DNA of 64,000 nt from contig DAHVQB010000001.1 of assembly GCA_027317945.1 (NCBI GenBank), positions 9,348 through 73,347 of the forward strand. The letters run 5' to 3'. The translations under genes and the position numbers were made by a program. Below, in pieces: positions 46,283-54,607 of this stretch. The notes under the pieces were generated by a model. That model saw nothing but the letters and a program-made list of their open reading frames with translations, ran no database searches and was not told the origin of the DNA. Every line of letters starts with the position of its first letter. Within the stretch, counting starts at the first letter, position 1. Source of the DNA: Candidatus Micrarchaeota archaeon. Its GTDB lineage: Archaea > Micrarchaeota > Micrarchaeia > Micrarchaeales > Micrarchaeaceae.

Positions 46283-47080
46283 ATGCAGACAACAATGGTA
46301 AAGGAGCTTGGGATGCTGCAAAAAACCAAAGTCGAGCTAGCTGATGCGCACTCCCACCTCGATTTGATTGAGGGTATGCATCAGATAAACGAAGCGATCG
46401 AATACGGCGTTTCCACCATAATAACTGATGGAGTGGACACCAAATCCAATTTAAAGTCGCTAGAATTGAGCGATTATAAGAATATCTTCCCTGCATTGGG
46501 CATTGACCCGCACAATATAATCACCATTGGAGATGATGAGCTCGAGTTCAATTTCAAACTTATCAAGGACAACGCGGAGCGCATAGTAGCTATAGGCGAG
46601 ATAGGCTTGGATTATATGGTAGCCACAGATGCAAAGAAGAGATCCAGGCAGAAAACCGCGTTTGGCCGCTTCCTTGATTTGGCAGAGCAGTTGGATCTTC
46701 CCGTAAGCGTGCATGCCAGGAAGGCGATAAGTGATGTGCTTGAGATCCTTGGGAAGAGGGACGGGCTGCGCGTACAGATGCACTATTTTGATGGGGATGT
46801 AGAGGAGGCTAAAACCGCGGTAGAGCGTGGTTACATGATATCAATCCCCCCTGTAGAATCAGGGAGGAGGAAACGCGTGATAAAGGAGATTGGCATAGAC
46901 ATGATGCTTACCGAATCAGATGCTCCGGTCGTGGGTGCTAGCCCTAGCGATGTAGAGCGATCCGTAAGGATGATAGGCGGGATAAAGGGCATAGATTATG
47001 AGAGGGCCGCCCAGGCACTTACTGCCAATGCAAAGAAGTTCTTTAATATTAACAAGGAAAAAGGGTTTATGCGTTATTAG
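46283..47080 (+). CDS. tatD: TatD-family metal-dependent hydrolase
   Basis: Motifs are ADAHSHLD, GEIGLDY, VSVHARKA, MHYFDG and LTESDAP. An alternative ATG lies at 46313. Confidence 0.8.
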   Translation: MQTTMVKELGMLQKTKVELADAHSHLDLIEGMHQINEAIEYGVSTIITDGVDTKSNLKSLELSDYKNIFPALGIDPHNIITIGDDELEFNFKLIKDNAERIVAIGEIGLDYMVATDAKKRSRQKTAFGRFLDLAEQLDLPVSVHARKAISDVLEILGKRDGLRVQMHYFDGDVEEAKTAVERGYMISIPPVESGRRKRVIKEIGIDMMLTESDAPVVGASPSDVERSVRMIGGIKGIDYERAAQALTANAKKFFNINKEKGFMRY

Positions 47081-47181
47081 GGCCCGTAGCTCAGGTTGGA
47101 TAGAGCGGCAGACTTCTAATCTGATGGTCGCGGGTTCAAAATGGGTTTCTTCATAGAAGCATGAAAATCCCGCCGGGCCCG
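47080..47181 (+). tRNA. tRNA-Arg(TCT) with a roughly 27-nt intron in the T-loop
   Basis: Acceptor GGGCCCG/CGGGCCC; D arm GCTC...GAGC; anticodon loop CTTCTAA. The T stem GCGGG/CCCGC encloses 34 nt (TTCAAAATGGGTTTCTTCATAGAAGCATGAAAAT) instead of 7. The first base is the last base of the tatD stop codon. Confidence 0.8.
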
Positions 47182-50468: not shown

Positions 50469-51602
50469 ATGAATATTGTGATGGCGCAGTCAAATCTTAC
50501 GCTCAAGGGCGGTGCCGAACGTGTGGTACTCAAGATAGCGCAGCATTACAAGGCCAAAATTTATACTGCTGAATATAACAAGAAAACCACTTTCAGCGAA
50601 TTCTCGGACATTGACATTGAAGTAATAGGCAATGGCAGATTACAGAGGATCATGCCGTACGGCAGGGTTTCGCAAGGATTGAGCTATGGCCTCGGGTTCT
50701 ATAATTTCGTGATGAAAGGTGATTACGACGTTATAAACGCACATATAGCACCTAGCCATTGGATACGAAACAAGAACGAGCGCGTGCTGTGGTATTGTCA
50801 CACTCCGCTCAGGGACGTGTACGACCTTTACAATTACAGACTTAGCATAAAAAAGCGTTATCAGAGGCCTGTATACAGGATAGGAGCTGCAGCAGTCAGG
50901 CGCATGGATCGGAAGATAGTCAAGAATATAGAGATGATAGTAGCCAACAGCAGCAACACGCAATCTAGGATAGCTAAATACCTAGGCAGAGACGATGCGA
51001 GGGTATTGGGCGGGGGAGTGGAGTACGAGAAGTACAAGGACAAAGGCGACGGAAAGTATTTCCTTTATCCGTCCAGGATGTCACCGAACAAGAGGCAAGA
51101 CTATGCCATCAGGGCTTTTGAACTTTTTAAAAGGAGGGTAAAGGGCTACAAGCTTGTTCTTGTAGGGCCGGTATCCAAGGATGGTTTCTACCTGGATTTC
51201 TATATGAAGGTGCTTGAACTGTCAAAGAGGGTGGGCGATGTAGAGATAGTCGAGGCGGTAAACGAGGAAAGGTTAAGGGATTACTACTCCAAAGCCACTG
51301 CTGTGCTCTACGCCCCAATAGATGAAGATTACGGCCTTGTGCCATTGGAATCTATGGCAAGTGGCAAGCCAATAATATCGGTAAATGAGGGTGGCCCGAG
51401 GATGACCGTACGGAACGGCGATACCGGCTTCCTTGTAAACAATGAGGCGGAGATGGCATCAAAGATGGTGGAGGTAGCAGAAAATCCCGCCACGGCAGAG
51501 CAAATCGGAAAGAATGGGGTAGCATGCGTAAAGAAAGAGTACTCATGGGGCAGATTCTTCAATGAATTTGATAGGTACCTAAAGGAAGTATCTAAGAAGT
51601 GA
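50469..51602 (+). CDS. Glycosyltransferase, GT4 family
   Basis: EDYGLVPLESMASGKPIISVNEGGPRMTVRNGDTGFLV is the GT4 C-terminal signature. Confidence 0.8.
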   Translation: MNIVMAQSNLTLKGGAERVVLKIAQHYKAKIYTAEYNKKTTFSEFSDIDIEVIGNGRLQRIMPYGRVSQGLSYGLGFYNFVMKGDYDVINAHIAPSHWIRNKNERVLWYCHTPLRDVYDLYNYRLSIKKRYQRPVYRIGAAAVRRMDRKIVKNIEMIVANSSNTQSRIAKYLGRDDARVLGGGVEYEKYKDKGDGKYFLYPSRMSPNKRQDYAIRAFELFKRRVKGYKLVLVGPVSKDGFYLDFYMKVLELSKRVGDVEIVEAVNEERLRDYYSKATAVLYAPIDEDYGLVPLESMASGKPIISVNEGGPRMTVRNGDTGFLVNNEAEMASKMVEVAENPATAEQIGKNGVACVKKEYSWGRFFNEFDRYLKEVSKK

Positions 51603-51607
51603 CATCC

Positions 51608-51988
51608 TTATTCAGGCGCCTTCTTTGAATCAGGCTTCTTTGCATCGCCGGGCTTAGTGGCAGGCATTACTTCTATCACGTACTTGGATATTATCTTTGA
51701 TGCGTAGTCCAGCACTTTCTTTATATTAGACTCAGTGTTGGCACCGGTGCATATCATTTTGCCATTCTTGAAAAGTATTATTACGGCCTTTGGCTCGGCT
51801 ATCTTGAAAATTGCACCTGGAAACTGTTCCGGCTCATAATCAACGGCCTTGACGTCTCTTGACAGAGAATAAAGATCTATTATGGCATGCAGGTCTGCAC
51901 TGACAACGATATTCTGTATCTTTATTGTTGGTTTTATTATGTCATTGCTTTGACGTGCCTGCGTGCTCTTTGATGGCGTTTCAATCAC
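51608..51988 (-). CDS. Single-repeat TATA-box-binding-protein (TBP-fold) protein, half the normal size
   Basis: 126 aa with one complete TBP repeat: IKIQNIVVSADLHAIIDLYSL..VDYEPEQFPGAIFKIAEPKAVIILFKNGKMICTGANTESNIKKVLDYASKI. GTG start, with an in-frame TAA 12 nt upstream. A TATA-like TTATTTAAAC lies 24-32 nt upstream. Confidence 0.7.
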   Translation of the reverse strand: MIETPSKSTQARQSNDIIKPTIKIQNIVVSADLHAIIDLYSLSRDVKAVDYEPEQFPGAIFKIAEPKAVIILFKNGKMICTGANTESNIKKVLDYASKIISKYVIEVMPATKPGDAKKPDSKKAPE

Positions 51989-52094
51989 CTTTATGAATTA
52001 GGATGAAAAGGTTTAAATAAGTGGGATAGGAAGATAGGCGATTTGCGGACATTTGCGATGTCTGGTGATTTCCCGCTGTCTTGTTGCGGATCCC

Positions 52095-52260
52095 ATGTGG
52101 TGTGACATCCTCCAACGACTAAAGGTAGTTGGCTTCCCCTGCGTTTGCAGGGTATGTTATCAGTTCTCCGAGGGCTGCCTCCCGTTGGGGTCTTACATCC
52201 TCTCCCTGAGCGTGACTTCGAGAGTGTCCCTCCCTAGCTCTGTTGAGTATATTTATGGAT
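52095..52260 (-). ncRNA. Candidate TnpB omega-RNA (reRNA) scaffold of copy 2
   Basis: Sequence blocks are conserved with 18600-18789. The hairpin is CCAAC...GTTGG (plus-strand 52112-52132). Boundaries are approximate. Confidence 0.45.
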
Positions 52261-53425
52261 GCGTTTACGTCCCTGTCCAACCGTAGGCCGCATAGCCCGC
52301 AGTTGTACTCCCTCACGGATAATGGCATTTCCAGCATATTGCCACAATTACTGCATTCCTTTGTCGTGTTCCTTGCGTCCACCTTAATTACCTTCATGCC
52401 GGCACTTTCGGCCTTGTATGAAAGGAAGTTTATGAACCTGTTCCATGAAGCGTTATGGATTGATTGCGCAAGACGATGGTTCTTTTCCATGTTTTGGATG
52501 TGAAGGTTTTCCACTGCGAATGAGGTGTATCCTGCCTTGGCGAGTTCGGTTGAAAGTTTGTGCATGAAGTCGTTTGACTGGTTTTTTACCCTCTTCCATT
52601 CCTATTGAAGGTGGAATTTTGCCTTTTCCCTTCTTTTCGAGCCTTTGTCTCTCCTTGCAATTATGCGTTGCCAATGTGCAATCCTCTTTTCCTTCTTCCT
52701 GAAGAATTTTGGCTTCTGGATTGTCTTTCCGTCCGAAAGGGCTATGAAATTGTTGGGTCCCATGTCGATGCCGACTGGGTTTGTGTCCTCGGTCTTCTTT
52801 GGATTGGTCACCTGCTCCGCGGTGAAGATTGCATAATAGTCTCTTCCCTCCCTTTTTATCGTCAGTGTCTTCACGTTTCCGATAATGTTCCTGTGCTGTT
52901 CTATCTTCATCGTGCCTATTTTTGATATTCTTAGCCTGCCTTTATCTATCCTAAATGAACCGTTATTTTCTATGTGGGTTATTGAGTTGAACCTGTCCTT
53001 TGACTTGAAGCGTGGGAATCCTGCATTTATCCTTGCTCCTGATTTCTTCTGATGACATCTTCGAAGAAGTTTTGGTAAGTTTGAAGGAGTTTGTTGCGTA
53101 TGTCGACTCTGATATGGGCGTAGAGTTGCAAGTATGTCTTGTCCTCTTTTATTATCTCATTAAGGAGTTGGTTTATTATTCTCTGTGATATTTTTGAGTC
53201 GGGATTGCTCCTATGTGCATTTATCGTCTTCTCCAGCAGTTTGTTGTACAGTCTCTGTGAAATGTAAATGGCATCGTCTATCTCCTTCTGCCTCTTTGCG
53301 TCAGGATATATCCTGAACTTGTAGGCACGGATTGTTCCAATGTTCCCTGTTTTATTTTGTATTTTTATATACCTTCTTACGCCCTTAACCCACCATTGAA
53401 ATGATGGGTTTGCGGGGCGAGTCAT
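52119..53425 (-). pseudogene. tnpB: tnpB (RNA-guided nuclease family) disrupted by one frameshift and one in-frame TAG
   Basis: ORFs 53027-53425 (RAYKFRIYP...), 52602-52910 (GIDMGPNNF, RuvC-I) and 52119-52565 (ENLHIQNM..., CSNCGN...CGLCG, DRDVNASINIL). The first two are in different frames, with the shift near 53030-53050. The last two are in the same frame, separated by TAG 52602-52604. Confidence 0.8.
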
Positions 53426-53497
53426 TTATCATGAGATTGGCTGACAAAGTAATAAAAGCTTAGGAACTCATACTCTTTGGATTTGGCCGGTGCGGTG

Positions 53498-54607
53498 ATG
53501 AAAAAGGTGGTTATCGTAGGAGCCGGAGTAGTCGGCTTAGTGCTTGCAAAGGAACTGTGCAGGCTGGGACATTATGTCACCGTATACGACGCCAAAAATG
53601 ATATTAAGGAAGGATCCGCCAAGGCCTCGGGCATACTCTCGAAAGAAGGGCTTGCGACAATAGGCGTGAATTATAAGAGCGCAGTAGTGAACACCCTTGA
53701 TGGAGCTGTGCTGCATGCAGGGAAGGAACTCCTCAAGATAAAGGCCGCGGACACCAAGGCTTACATACTGGACAGAGGGAAGCTAGTCGAGGAGTGCCTG
53801 TCAGAAGCGAGGAGCGCAGGTGCGGATGTGGTGCTTGGAAAGAGCGTACAAAGAGAAGATATAAGACTGATGAAAAACGACAGCGATACGGTGCTTGTTG
53901 GCGCCGACGGCTCTGTCTCGAATGTGGCAAGCACATGCGGATTCCCACAGATAAAGGAGTACATACTCACATACAAAGCTGAATACAATGGCGCACGGCT
54001 GGACGATCCTCATTCGGTGGACCTGTTTTTCTCGAACAAAGTGTCCAACCGCTTTTTCGGATGGACGGCGCCTTACTCTAAAAGCCTTGTAGAGGCAGGT
54101 ATAGGGATAAGCAGCTTCGCAAGGAGCAGCAGCTCCAGCGCATTTAAGCAGTTCCTTAAGAATGAGACCCTACATCGCATGCTTGATGGGGCCAATCCCG
54201 TTTCTGGGCATGCCAGCATGATACCTGTATCTACACGAAAGCGCACAGTGAAGGACAATGTTCTGCTCGTAGGTGATGCGGCGGGCCAGGTGAAGGCGAC
54301 AACTGGAGGCGGGATAATATTCGGCGCGTCGTGCGCCAGGATAGCTGCCGGGGCCATTGATGACCATATAAGGAATGGAAAGCCTTTGGAGCGCTATGAG
54401 AAAGCATGGAGGAAGGCGTATGGGCTGGACTTAACGATGCACAAGATGATCCATGGATACTACGCCTCGTTAGGCAGCAGGAGCCTGGACATGCTTTTCA
54501 TGTTTTCCAAGCTGTTTGGAGCGGAAAGCTTCTTCAGCAAGTATGGCGATATGGACAGGCCGACCATCATGATAAAGAGGTTCTTCCTGCGCGGCATCTC
54601 CGGATAA
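53498..54607 (+). CDS. Geranylgeranyl reductase family FAD-dependent oxidoreductase
   Basis: The Rossmann motif is KKVVIVGAGVVGLVLAKEL, and LLVGDAAGQVKATTGGGI is typical of digeranylgeranylglycerophospholipid reductases. ATG at 53498. Confidence 0.8.
   Translation: MKKVVIVGAGVVGLVLAKELCRLGHYVTVYDAKNDIKEGSAKASGILSKEGLATIGVNYKSAVVNTLDGAVLHAGKELLKIKAADTKAYILDRGKLVEECLSEARSAGADVVLGKSVQREDIRLMKNDSDTVLVGADGSVSNVASTCGFPQIKEYILTYKAEYNGARLDDPHSVDLFFSNKVSNRFFGWTAPYSKSLVEAGIGISSFARSSSSSAFKQFLKNETLHRMLDGANPVSGHASMIPVSTRKRTVKDNVLLVGDAAGQVKATTGGGIIFGASCARIAAGAIDDHIRNGKPLERYEKAWRKAYGLDLTMHKMIHGYYASLGSRSLDMLFMFSKLFGAESFFSKYGDMDRPTIMIKRFFLRGISG

Follow-up and report, generated by a model that had tools for sequence, protein, structure and literature searches.

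We identified a gene for a TATA-binding protein (TBP) with a single TBP repeat in a 64,000-nucleotide stretch of DNA from a Candidatus Micrarchaeota archaeon (assembly GCA_027317945.1, contig DAHVQB010000001.1, positions 9,348 to 73,347), which is referred to below as the window. TBP is the textbook protein built by internal gene duplication, and a single repeat provides half of the ten-stranded saddle together with one stirrup and two phenylalanines out of the four that intercalate. The protein encoded in the window, here called type A, is no lone curiosity, since this lineage has two paralogous single-repeat TBPs, of which the other is called type B. We give roughly even chances to the reading that type A is a functional single-repeat TBP subunit, that its main form is a homodimer (A2) and that it serves as a second TBP alongside a type-B dimer.

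The window gene and the type-A family

The gene, its repeat and the segment that follows the repeat are located as follows.

51608..51988, minus strand: type-A single-repeat TBP gene, from the list of open reading frames; 126 aa from GTG, or 123 aa if the start is the conserved ACG
51680..51925, minus strand: one TBP repeat, residues 22-103, with the order S1-H1-S2-S3-S4-S5-H2, from the Pfam envelope, AlphaFold2 and Foldseek
51668..51685, minus strand: SKYVIEV segment after H2; S101, K102, Y103 and V104 are invariant or nearly so in 48 sequences

An initial annotation of the window, made from the sequence alone, had described a 126-aa open reading frame that starts at GTG and contains one full TBP repeat, and the translation on the minus strand is indeed as quoted there. 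The profile search that it proposed, with Pfam PF00352, returned one domain match (E=1.3e-24), which scored 86.3 bits against a cut-off of 22.9 and covered profile positions 2-85 of 85. Ten NCBIfam models of full-length TBPs each matched the protein through one half only, at about 66-86 bits, and all of these scores fell below the respective cut-offs of 181-347. The best solved relative was the TBP of S. acidocaldarius (1mp9, E=1.5e-38), and the protein fitted the two repeats of 1mp9 equally, at 67.9 and 66.9 bits. The polypeptide does not carry the two tandem repeats of a canonical TBP; it consists of a single domain bounded by stop codons.

The initial annotation had also argued that there is no room for a second repeat, and this was borne out. 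An in-frame TAA is found at 52000-51998, 12 nt upstream of the GTG, and the convergent gene for a glycosyltransferase of family 4 (GT4) ends at 51602, which leaves a gap of 5 nt to the TBP gene. A six-frame phmmer search found no further TBP domain in the 64-kb window, where the next match had an E-value of 4. In addition, the independent Logan assembly DRR872538 contains an identical protein in the same gene context. The single repeat is not an assembly or frameshift artefact, because no other frame in the window is TBP-like and the same gene and neighbours are present in DRR872538.

An AlphaFold2 model built on the family alignment reached a predicted local distance difference test (pLDDT) score of 82-90 over the core, with disordered basic tails. 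Strands were modelled at residues 27-32, 35-37, 49-51, 58-63, 68-73 and 77-83 and helices at 39-45 and 86-103, so that the model has the helix-grip repeat fold, in which a five-stranded antiparallel sheet is combined with H1 and H2. Foldseek aligned the model to one half of 1cdw with a root-mean-square deviation (rmsd) of 0.9 Å over 83 columns, and the 44 best Foldseek matches were all TBPs (rmsd 0.9-2.7 Å).

Residues N26, I27 and V28 of S1 and the motifs YEPEQFPGAI, LFKNGK and ICTG are invariant in 48 family sequences. Among these positions are the candidate DNA contacts N26, V28, F56, F73 and T81, which we take to be such from established TBP structures and which are invariant in all 48 type-A members. 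The stirrup, Y51 E52 P53 E54 Q55 F56 P57 G58, is a putative contact for TFB/TFIIB and is likewise invariant in the 48 sequences. Of the 15 columns that at least 80% of all TBP repeats have in common, the window protein retains 14. The SKYVIEV segment aligns with the inter-repeat linker of 1mp9 and includes a predicted strand (E104-107), and it is a candidate contact with a partner subunit.

A genome scan with one genome per GTDB species confirmed 430 tblastn-positive stretches, of which the best 80 loci were analysed, and the findings from protein searches rest on the best 120 matches per search. The 80 loci come from 80 different metagenome-assembled genomes (MAGs), with chromosomes of 0.78-1.21 Mb among them. 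Type A is present on the complete or near-complete genomes OY969114.1, OY970071.1, CAVWJC010000001.1 and JAKAWW010000001.1. Most of these genomes are labelled Micrarchaeota, a few Marsarchaeota and one as a bacterium, and the labels other than Micrarchaeota probably belong to mislabelled or mis-binned MAGs. The type-A gene contains exactly one TBP domain at every one of the 80 loci, and six-frame searches found no second TBP domain within 10 kb of it at any of them (1.3 Mb in total). Dozens of proteins, 94-144 aa long and with identities of 63-95%, came up in the protein search; the few that are named are filed as "hypothetical proteins" from MAGs of Micrarchaeota or "Marsarchaeota". Type A forms a monophyletic group, with 100% bootstrap support, when individual repeats are placed in a neighbour-joining tree.

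Two ways in which a second repeat might have escaped notice were ruled out. A frameshift or misassembly was rejected on the six-frame searches of the window and the 80 loci together with the independent assembly, and an adjacent split gene was rejected since no second TBP domain occurs within 10 kb at any of the 80 loci.

The search for homologues and the selection analysis, both of which had been proposed in the initial annotation, showed orthologues in at least 80 species. Over the 88-aa core, identity within the family has a median of 81% and a minimum of 64%. Synonymous sites are saturated (proportion of synonymous differences, pS, about 0.75), and the proportion of nonsynonymous differences (pN) is about 0.12. 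The ratio of nonsynonymous to synonymous change (omega) is 0.006-0.03 for the closest unsaturated pairs of the window gene, and its median is 0.09. When one pair of genomes is compared, type A is 76% identical, type B 73% and ribosomal protein L21e 68%. Purifying selection on type A is strong, and this single-repeat TBP is apparently essential.

Some type-A or related sequences are filed under unexpected names. L041 (labelled Candidatus Acidiferrales bacterium), P0082 (Baltobacteraceae) and P0506 (Acidoferrum) place a type-A TBP or a Micrarchaeota L21e on contigs of bacterial MAGs, and these contigs are probably mis-binned. P0157 (127 aa) is type A, similar to P0070, over its N-terminal two thirds and resembles the B-B fusion P0297 after YEPEQFPGAI. 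This protein is probably a chimera that assembly produced at the conserved motif, and as such it hints that type-A and B-like genes occurred in one sample or genome.

Type B and apparent changes in repeat number

We also found, by an exhaustive profile search, a second kind of single-repeat TBP. This protein, P0248 (KGH98_02665), has 117 aa and is 51% identical to the window protein. It is encoded on contig 8 of the MAG REEA75, which carries type A on contig 4, and types A and B are also present on one chromosome, OY969114.1 (776,853 bp), about 115 kb apart. Type B is placed divergent to rpl21e, beside rpoF and a DUF655 gene. Its closest relatives among the matches listed (50-66% identical) are two-repeat TBPs, of which those with names come from Micrarchaeota, Anstonellales or Diapherotrites. 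A two-repeat TBP is found at the same rpl21e locus in both of the more distant Micrarchaeota whose loci were inspected, and this position is therefore taken to be the ancestral TBP locus of the phylum.

L21e was used to reach this locus in relatives of REEA75. Among eight close lineages, the rpl21e locus carries a single-repeat type B in five, no TBP gene in three and a two-repeat TBP in none. The type-B genes at the locus are the following.

L082 3622-3975, plus strand: type-B gene
L088 5599-5925, minus strand: type-B gene
L092 3597-3917, minus strand: type-B gene
L098 2618-2932, minus strand: type-B gene
L112 2072-2407, minus strand: type-B gene

Their products have 104-117 aa, start with ATG and share 69-91% mutual identity, and type B is monophyletic with 100% bootstrap support in the neighbour-joining repeat tree. 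The rpl21e locus contains no TBP gene in L090, L094 and L100. Two of the three lineages with this empty locus (CAVXKI01 and REEA50) carry type A, in which S1, H2 and the tail are unchanged. Neither search listed a two-repeat TBP from the large type-A chromosomes among its best 120 matches, and the abundant type-A protein P0038 shares no accession with the type-B MAGs. A published table lists two members of the TBP archaeal cluster of orthologous groups (arCOG) for Mia14 (CP019964), a complete genome of the Micrarchaeota, compared with a single member in 13 other DPANN genomes (PMC5498576, Suppl. Data 4).

The origin of type A was also examined at the level of repeats. The initial annotation had derived the window repeat from the C-terminal repeat of full-length TBPs, and this was not supported: the fit to both repeats of 1mp9 is equal, the tree gives no resolved affinity to either the N or the C repeats, and the profile log-odds are slightly N-like. 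Neither type A nor type B joins the N-repeat or the C-repeat clade in the neighbour-joining tree. With a profile that contrasts N with C repeats, N repeats scored +32 bits, C repeats -33, type A +16 and type B +26 to +29, and the two repeats of Micrarchaeota two-repeat TBPs scored alike, at +8 and +7. The 5' ends of types A and B match, each having a Shine-Dalgarno-like GGTG followed by ACG/ATG-GCA-AAG. This shared 5' region indicates that type A arose by duplication of a whole single-repeat gene and did not come from the C-terminal half of a gene that was split.

The number of repeats seems to have changed more than once in these genes. The two repeats of ordinary TBPs have a median identity of 39%, whereas the median is 69% in the Micrarchaeota-like two-repeat set, with values up to 93% in P0299. 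Five two-repeat Micrarchaeota TBPs, P0299 (L083 10001-10591), P0297, P0300, P0346 and P0382, have repeats that are 89-93% identical, a level that would imply very recent tandem duplication or gene conversion. Two of these proteins with near-identical repeats, P0297 and P0299, are encoded at the rpl21e locus, and in the repeat tree an N repeat tends to group with the C repeat of its own lineage. The simplest reading of these sequences is that the gene at the rpl21e locus repeatedly collapsed to one repeat and was re-duplicated, or else that its repeats were homogenised. Unequal recombination between similar repeats could produce both collapse and re-duplication, and single- and double-repeat forms appear to interconvert in Micrarchaeota. 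The natural B-B fusions, with repeats about 90% identical, show that a nearly symmetric saddle is viable.

Outside the Micrarchaeota-like set, P0148 (272 aa) is a TBP with three repeats, the first two of which are near-identical. This shows that the repeat number of TBP genes changes there as well.

A further element was noted near rpl21e. At 13 loci, a hairpin with a 9-bp stem, GGCGTATGC...GCATACGCC, followed by an exactly conserved GGTGGATGAGAATAGGG, lies between a methyltransferase gene and rpl21e (or type B); it was located at L082 4078-4094 (minus strand), L088 5477-5493, L090 5742-5758, L092 3483-3499 and in L096-L101. The element is conserved even though L21e itself is only 63-69% identical. 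No Rfam family was found for it, and it may be an undescribed small RNA.

Promoter, start codon and neighbouring genes

The region in front of the type-A gene contains four features.

52011..52020, minus strand: TATA-like promoter element TTATTTAAAC, 23-32 nt upstream of the GTG, from the sequence
51989..52054, minus strand: native upstream region retained after insertion of an insertion sequence (IS) element, from local alignment to L002 starting at the 5' end of the gene
51984..51989, minus strand: GGTGAT, a Shine-Dalgarno-like motif that contains the GTG of the window gene; GGTG(A/G)TT-NN-ACG is found in 54 of 80 loci
51977..51979, minus strand: in-frame ACG codon, candidate non-canonical start; part of the motif at 54 of 80 loci, with ATG at this place in type B

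As the initial annotation had suggested, the gene has a promoter of its own. The TATA-like element of the window is kept across the orthologues, in which the GTG of the GGTGAT motif is preceded at 29-36 nt by a similar TATTTAAA(C/T)CTTTC element, and TATTTAAAC is an element of the promoter that belongs to the type-A gene itself. Homology to the uninterrupted relative L002 extends about 66 nt upstream of the start, and the TATA element is therefore native.

The 5' end of the gene has the form GGTG(A/G)TT-NN-ACG-GCN-AAR in 54 of the 80 type-A loci (L002-L081 set). In all 54 of these loci the ACG is in the TBP frame, with no stop between it and the core, and in 15 loci the codon immediately before the ACG is a stop. 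By comparison, 48 of the 54 have the GTG within GGTGAT in another frame, and type-A orthologues often have a canonical in-frame start only far downstream or none at all. The in-frame GTG of the window gene thus seems to be an exception within the family. Elsewhere in type-A genes, ACG accounts for only 19% of threonine codons, and the type-B gene has a canonical ATG at the position homologous to the type-A ACG. In other genes of the window an ATG or TTG follows GGTGATT at a distance of 2-3 nt, and GGTGA sites surveyed across the window lend only modest support to the use of this Shine-Dalgarno motif. The ACG at 51977-51979 may be a real, non-canonical initiation codon that follows a Shine-Dalgarno motif.

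The genes that surround the type-A gene are given below.

50469..51602, plus strand: GT4 glycosyltransferase, convergent neighbour (Pfam Glycos_transf_1, Glyco_transf_4); downstream and convergent in 57 of 80 loci
52119..53425, minus strand: decayed tnpB of IS605/IS200 type, in three fragments (Pfam Cas12f1-like_TNB, OrfB_IS605, HTH_OrfB_IS605)
53477..54607, plus strand: FAD-dependent oxidoreductase related to geranylgeranyl reductases (Pfam FAD_binding_3, Lycopene_cycl); divergent and upstream in 61 of 80 loci

A GGR_cat domain was found in orthologues of the divergent oxidoreductase. The inserted tnpB element interrupts the stretch from the type-A promoter to the divergent oxidoreductase gene, and it is missing from the closest relatives, L002 and L003, in which the oxidoreductase gene is 164-190 nt from the type-A gene. 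The initial annotation had placed the right end of a decayed tnpB about 107 nt upstream of the TBP gene. The element is real, and the end of the L002 homology near 52054, about 66 nt upstream of the GTG, agrees roughly with the distance given there. The decayed tnpB is context and stands outside the TBP system. Elsewhere in the window, at 47080-47138 on the plus strand, a weak tRNA match of 59 nt (31.2 bits, just over the gathering score) spans all 71 model positions and could be a truncated or unusual tRNA.

Proposed function of single-repeat TBPs

Since one repeat is half of a DNA saddle, type A would have to act as a dimer. Two copies of type A would pair through their central S1 strands (S1-S1') into a ten-stranded saddle, and the SKYVI segment, which stands in the place of the inter-repeat linker, may aid dimerisation. 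Such an A2 saddle would insert four conserved phenylalanines into the TATA box and would offer the YEPEQFPG stirrup to TFB. The direction of transcription would be set by TFB together with the B recognition element (BRE), in line with what is established in archaea, where the pre-initiation complex is reported to be oriented by contact between TFB and the BRE and not by the asymmetry of TBP (Bell et al. 1999, PNAS). We infer that type A dimerises, binds DNA and recruits TFB, and that any two-repeat TBP is absent from these genomes. The A2 form is favoured because B-like repeats evidently pair with themselves and because type A is unchanged where type B has left its locus. The initial annotation had considered a homodimer that would recreate the postulated ancestral TBP. 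The part of this idea that concerns a dimer rebuilding the saddle is still the most likely function, whereas type A is no surviving ancestral form; it is secondarily single-repeat, since it is nested among Micrarchaeota TBPs. More tentatively, with chances that we put somewhat below even, an order-level clade of Micrarchaeota may have given up the two-repeat TBP and may initiate transcription with single-repeat dimers (A2, with or without type B), the forms still interconverting.

Several points weigh against the A2 homodimer as a TBP of this kind. In lineages whose rpl21e locus has no type B, the gene may simply lie at another place in the genome, and the two TBP-arCOG members of Mia14 are known as a count in a table, not as sequences. 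A divergent two-repeat TBP may be present elsewhere in type-A genomes, as the searches reached only close relatives of type B. In addition, the apparent absence of a canonical start from many orthologues suggests weak or regulated translation, which would fit a regulator equally well, and an artificial A-A tandem that was folded without an alignment had an uninformative pLDDT of 39.

Types A and B might instead form an obligate heterodimer, that is, a TBP made from two genes with an asymmetric saddle in which neither half works alone, and we judge this to be unlikely, although it is the main rival of A2. The two occur together in REEA75 and on chromosome OY969114.1, they are under similarly strong constraint (76% for A and 73% for B, against 68% for L21e), and within one genome they have stayed apart, with an identity of about 50% and with residues in S1 and H2 that are particular to each family, such as IVVSADLHA in the S1 of type A as opposed to IVA(S/N/K)A in type B. 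The presence of exactly two TBP-arCOG members in Mia14 would also fit a pair. However, type B is off its locus in three of the eight close lineages, two of which carry a type A with unchanged interface residues, and the B-B fusions with 89-93% identical repeats argue that B pairs with itself. Moreover, A and B both keep the N-terminal head (M/T-A-K) and the 5' region, as whole-gene duplicates do, and neither maps to the N or the C repeat.

Other roles for type A are less probable. It would be a regulator or decoy if it capped type B or a full TBP, or if it occupied TFB or TATA boxes unproductively. This is an improbable reading, which draws on the position of type A as an extra paralogue away from the ancestral TBP locus, on the ACG in place of ATG and the in-frame stops just upstream (15 loci), both suggestive of low or controlled translation, and on an invariant, A-specific alanine-to-valine substitution in S1. 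A decoy would be expected to lose contact residues, yet all candidate contacts with DNA or TFB are invariant; furthermore, type A is at least as conserved as type B and L21e and persists where type B has left its locus. It is very improbable that the TBP fold of type A was recruited outside transcription initiation, for example for nucleic-acid binding as in the N-terminal domain of RNase HIII or in DNA glycosylases. Single TBP-fold domains do such jobs elsewhere (PMC3597702), and the neighbours of type A (glycosyltransferase, oxidoreductase, SRP54) offer no link to transcription. However, type A is canonical in sequence, with E=1.5e-38 to solved TBPs, even the weakest TBP match in Foldseek has an E-value over 1,000 times better than those of the glycosylase and adaptin domains (about 0.04-0.09), and the TFB-binding stirrup motif YEPEQFPG is invariant. 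Finally, a pseudogene, a relic or an assembly or frameshift artefact that hides a second repeat has nothing in its favour apart from the decayed IS element that adjoins the gene. This explanation is already refuted and carries practically no weight, given an identical protein in the independent assembly DRR872538, 80 single-domain orthologues with intact frames and saturated synonymous change, and no TBP-like sequence nearby in any frame. The same conservation across 80 species with saturated synonymous sites disposes of the relic that the initial annotation had listed as an option.

The type-A protein can be set against several known systems. Canonical archaeal TBPs (PF00352 twice; NCBIfam PRK00394) share with it the repeat fold, the DNA-contact residues (Asn/Val in S1, two Phe per repeat and Thr in S5) and the YEPEQFPG stirrup, and type A is 38% identical to solved archaeal TBPs. 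However, the canonical proteins have two repeats in about 180-200 aa, compared with one repeat in about 95-145 aa, and their saddle is made from one chain, whereas that of type A would need two chains and can be perfectly symmetric. Type B of the Micrarchaeales is likewise single-repeat and is found in the same lineage, sometimes on the same chromosome, with a homologous 5' region; it differs in being only about 50% identical, in its place at the ancestral TBP locus and in its ATG start. In Nanoarchaeum equitans, a DPANN archaeon with a reduced genome, several proteins are encoded as two separate genes. Such split genes resemble the present case in that smaller gene products replace one polypeptide in a reduced-genome DPANN lineage, but the products of a split gene would align to consecutive parts of the full-length protein, whereas A and B each fit either repeat and have the same head.

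Single-repeat proteins have been reported from two other groups of archaea. The monopartite TBP-domain proteins of Thermococcales have 82-136 aa and one TBP-fold domain, and their genomic context excludes truncation (Brindefalk et al. 2013, PMC3597702). They are distant from TBP, form a sequence cluster of their own and coexist with a normal TBP in the Euryarchaeota listed (PMC3597702). By this published description type A is set apart from them, as it is canonical in sequence and belongs to DPANN Micrarchaeota whereas they are diverged. Halobacterial TbpA is a single repeat that clusters with true TBP repeats, is reportedly very similar to full-length TBPs of the same species and is reportedly non-essential (PMC3597702). 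Type A, by contrast, is only 46-59% identical to the nearest two-repeat TBPs among the matches listed, and it forms a deeply conserved family that occupies a fixed locus of its own and is present in at least 80 species. What is new compared with the halobacterial and Thermococcales cases is the canonical sequence, the conservation in many species of one DPANN phylum, the fixed locus and the fact that the ancestral TBP locus is also single-repeat. We found no description of Micrarchaeota single-repeat TBPs in the literature.

The finding has consequences for how these archaea are annotated and for how TBP is understood. The NCBI pipeline calls type-A proteins "hypothetical", and surveys of TBP presence in DPANN consequently miss that the factor comes in halves. 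The near-identical repeats and the conserved ACG suggest ongoing gain and loss of repeats and unusual translational control of a core transcription factor. To our knowledge, a symmetric homodimeric ancestor of TBP has so far existed only as a hypothesis. If our reading is true, type-A dimers would offer a present-day, secondarily derived counterpart to the symmetric TBP that is proposed to have existed before the duplication. Type A would thus allow it to be tested whether a symmetric saddle can bind TATA DNA, how promoter direction is set without TBP asymmetry, and why the fused form of TBP became fixed almost everywhere else.

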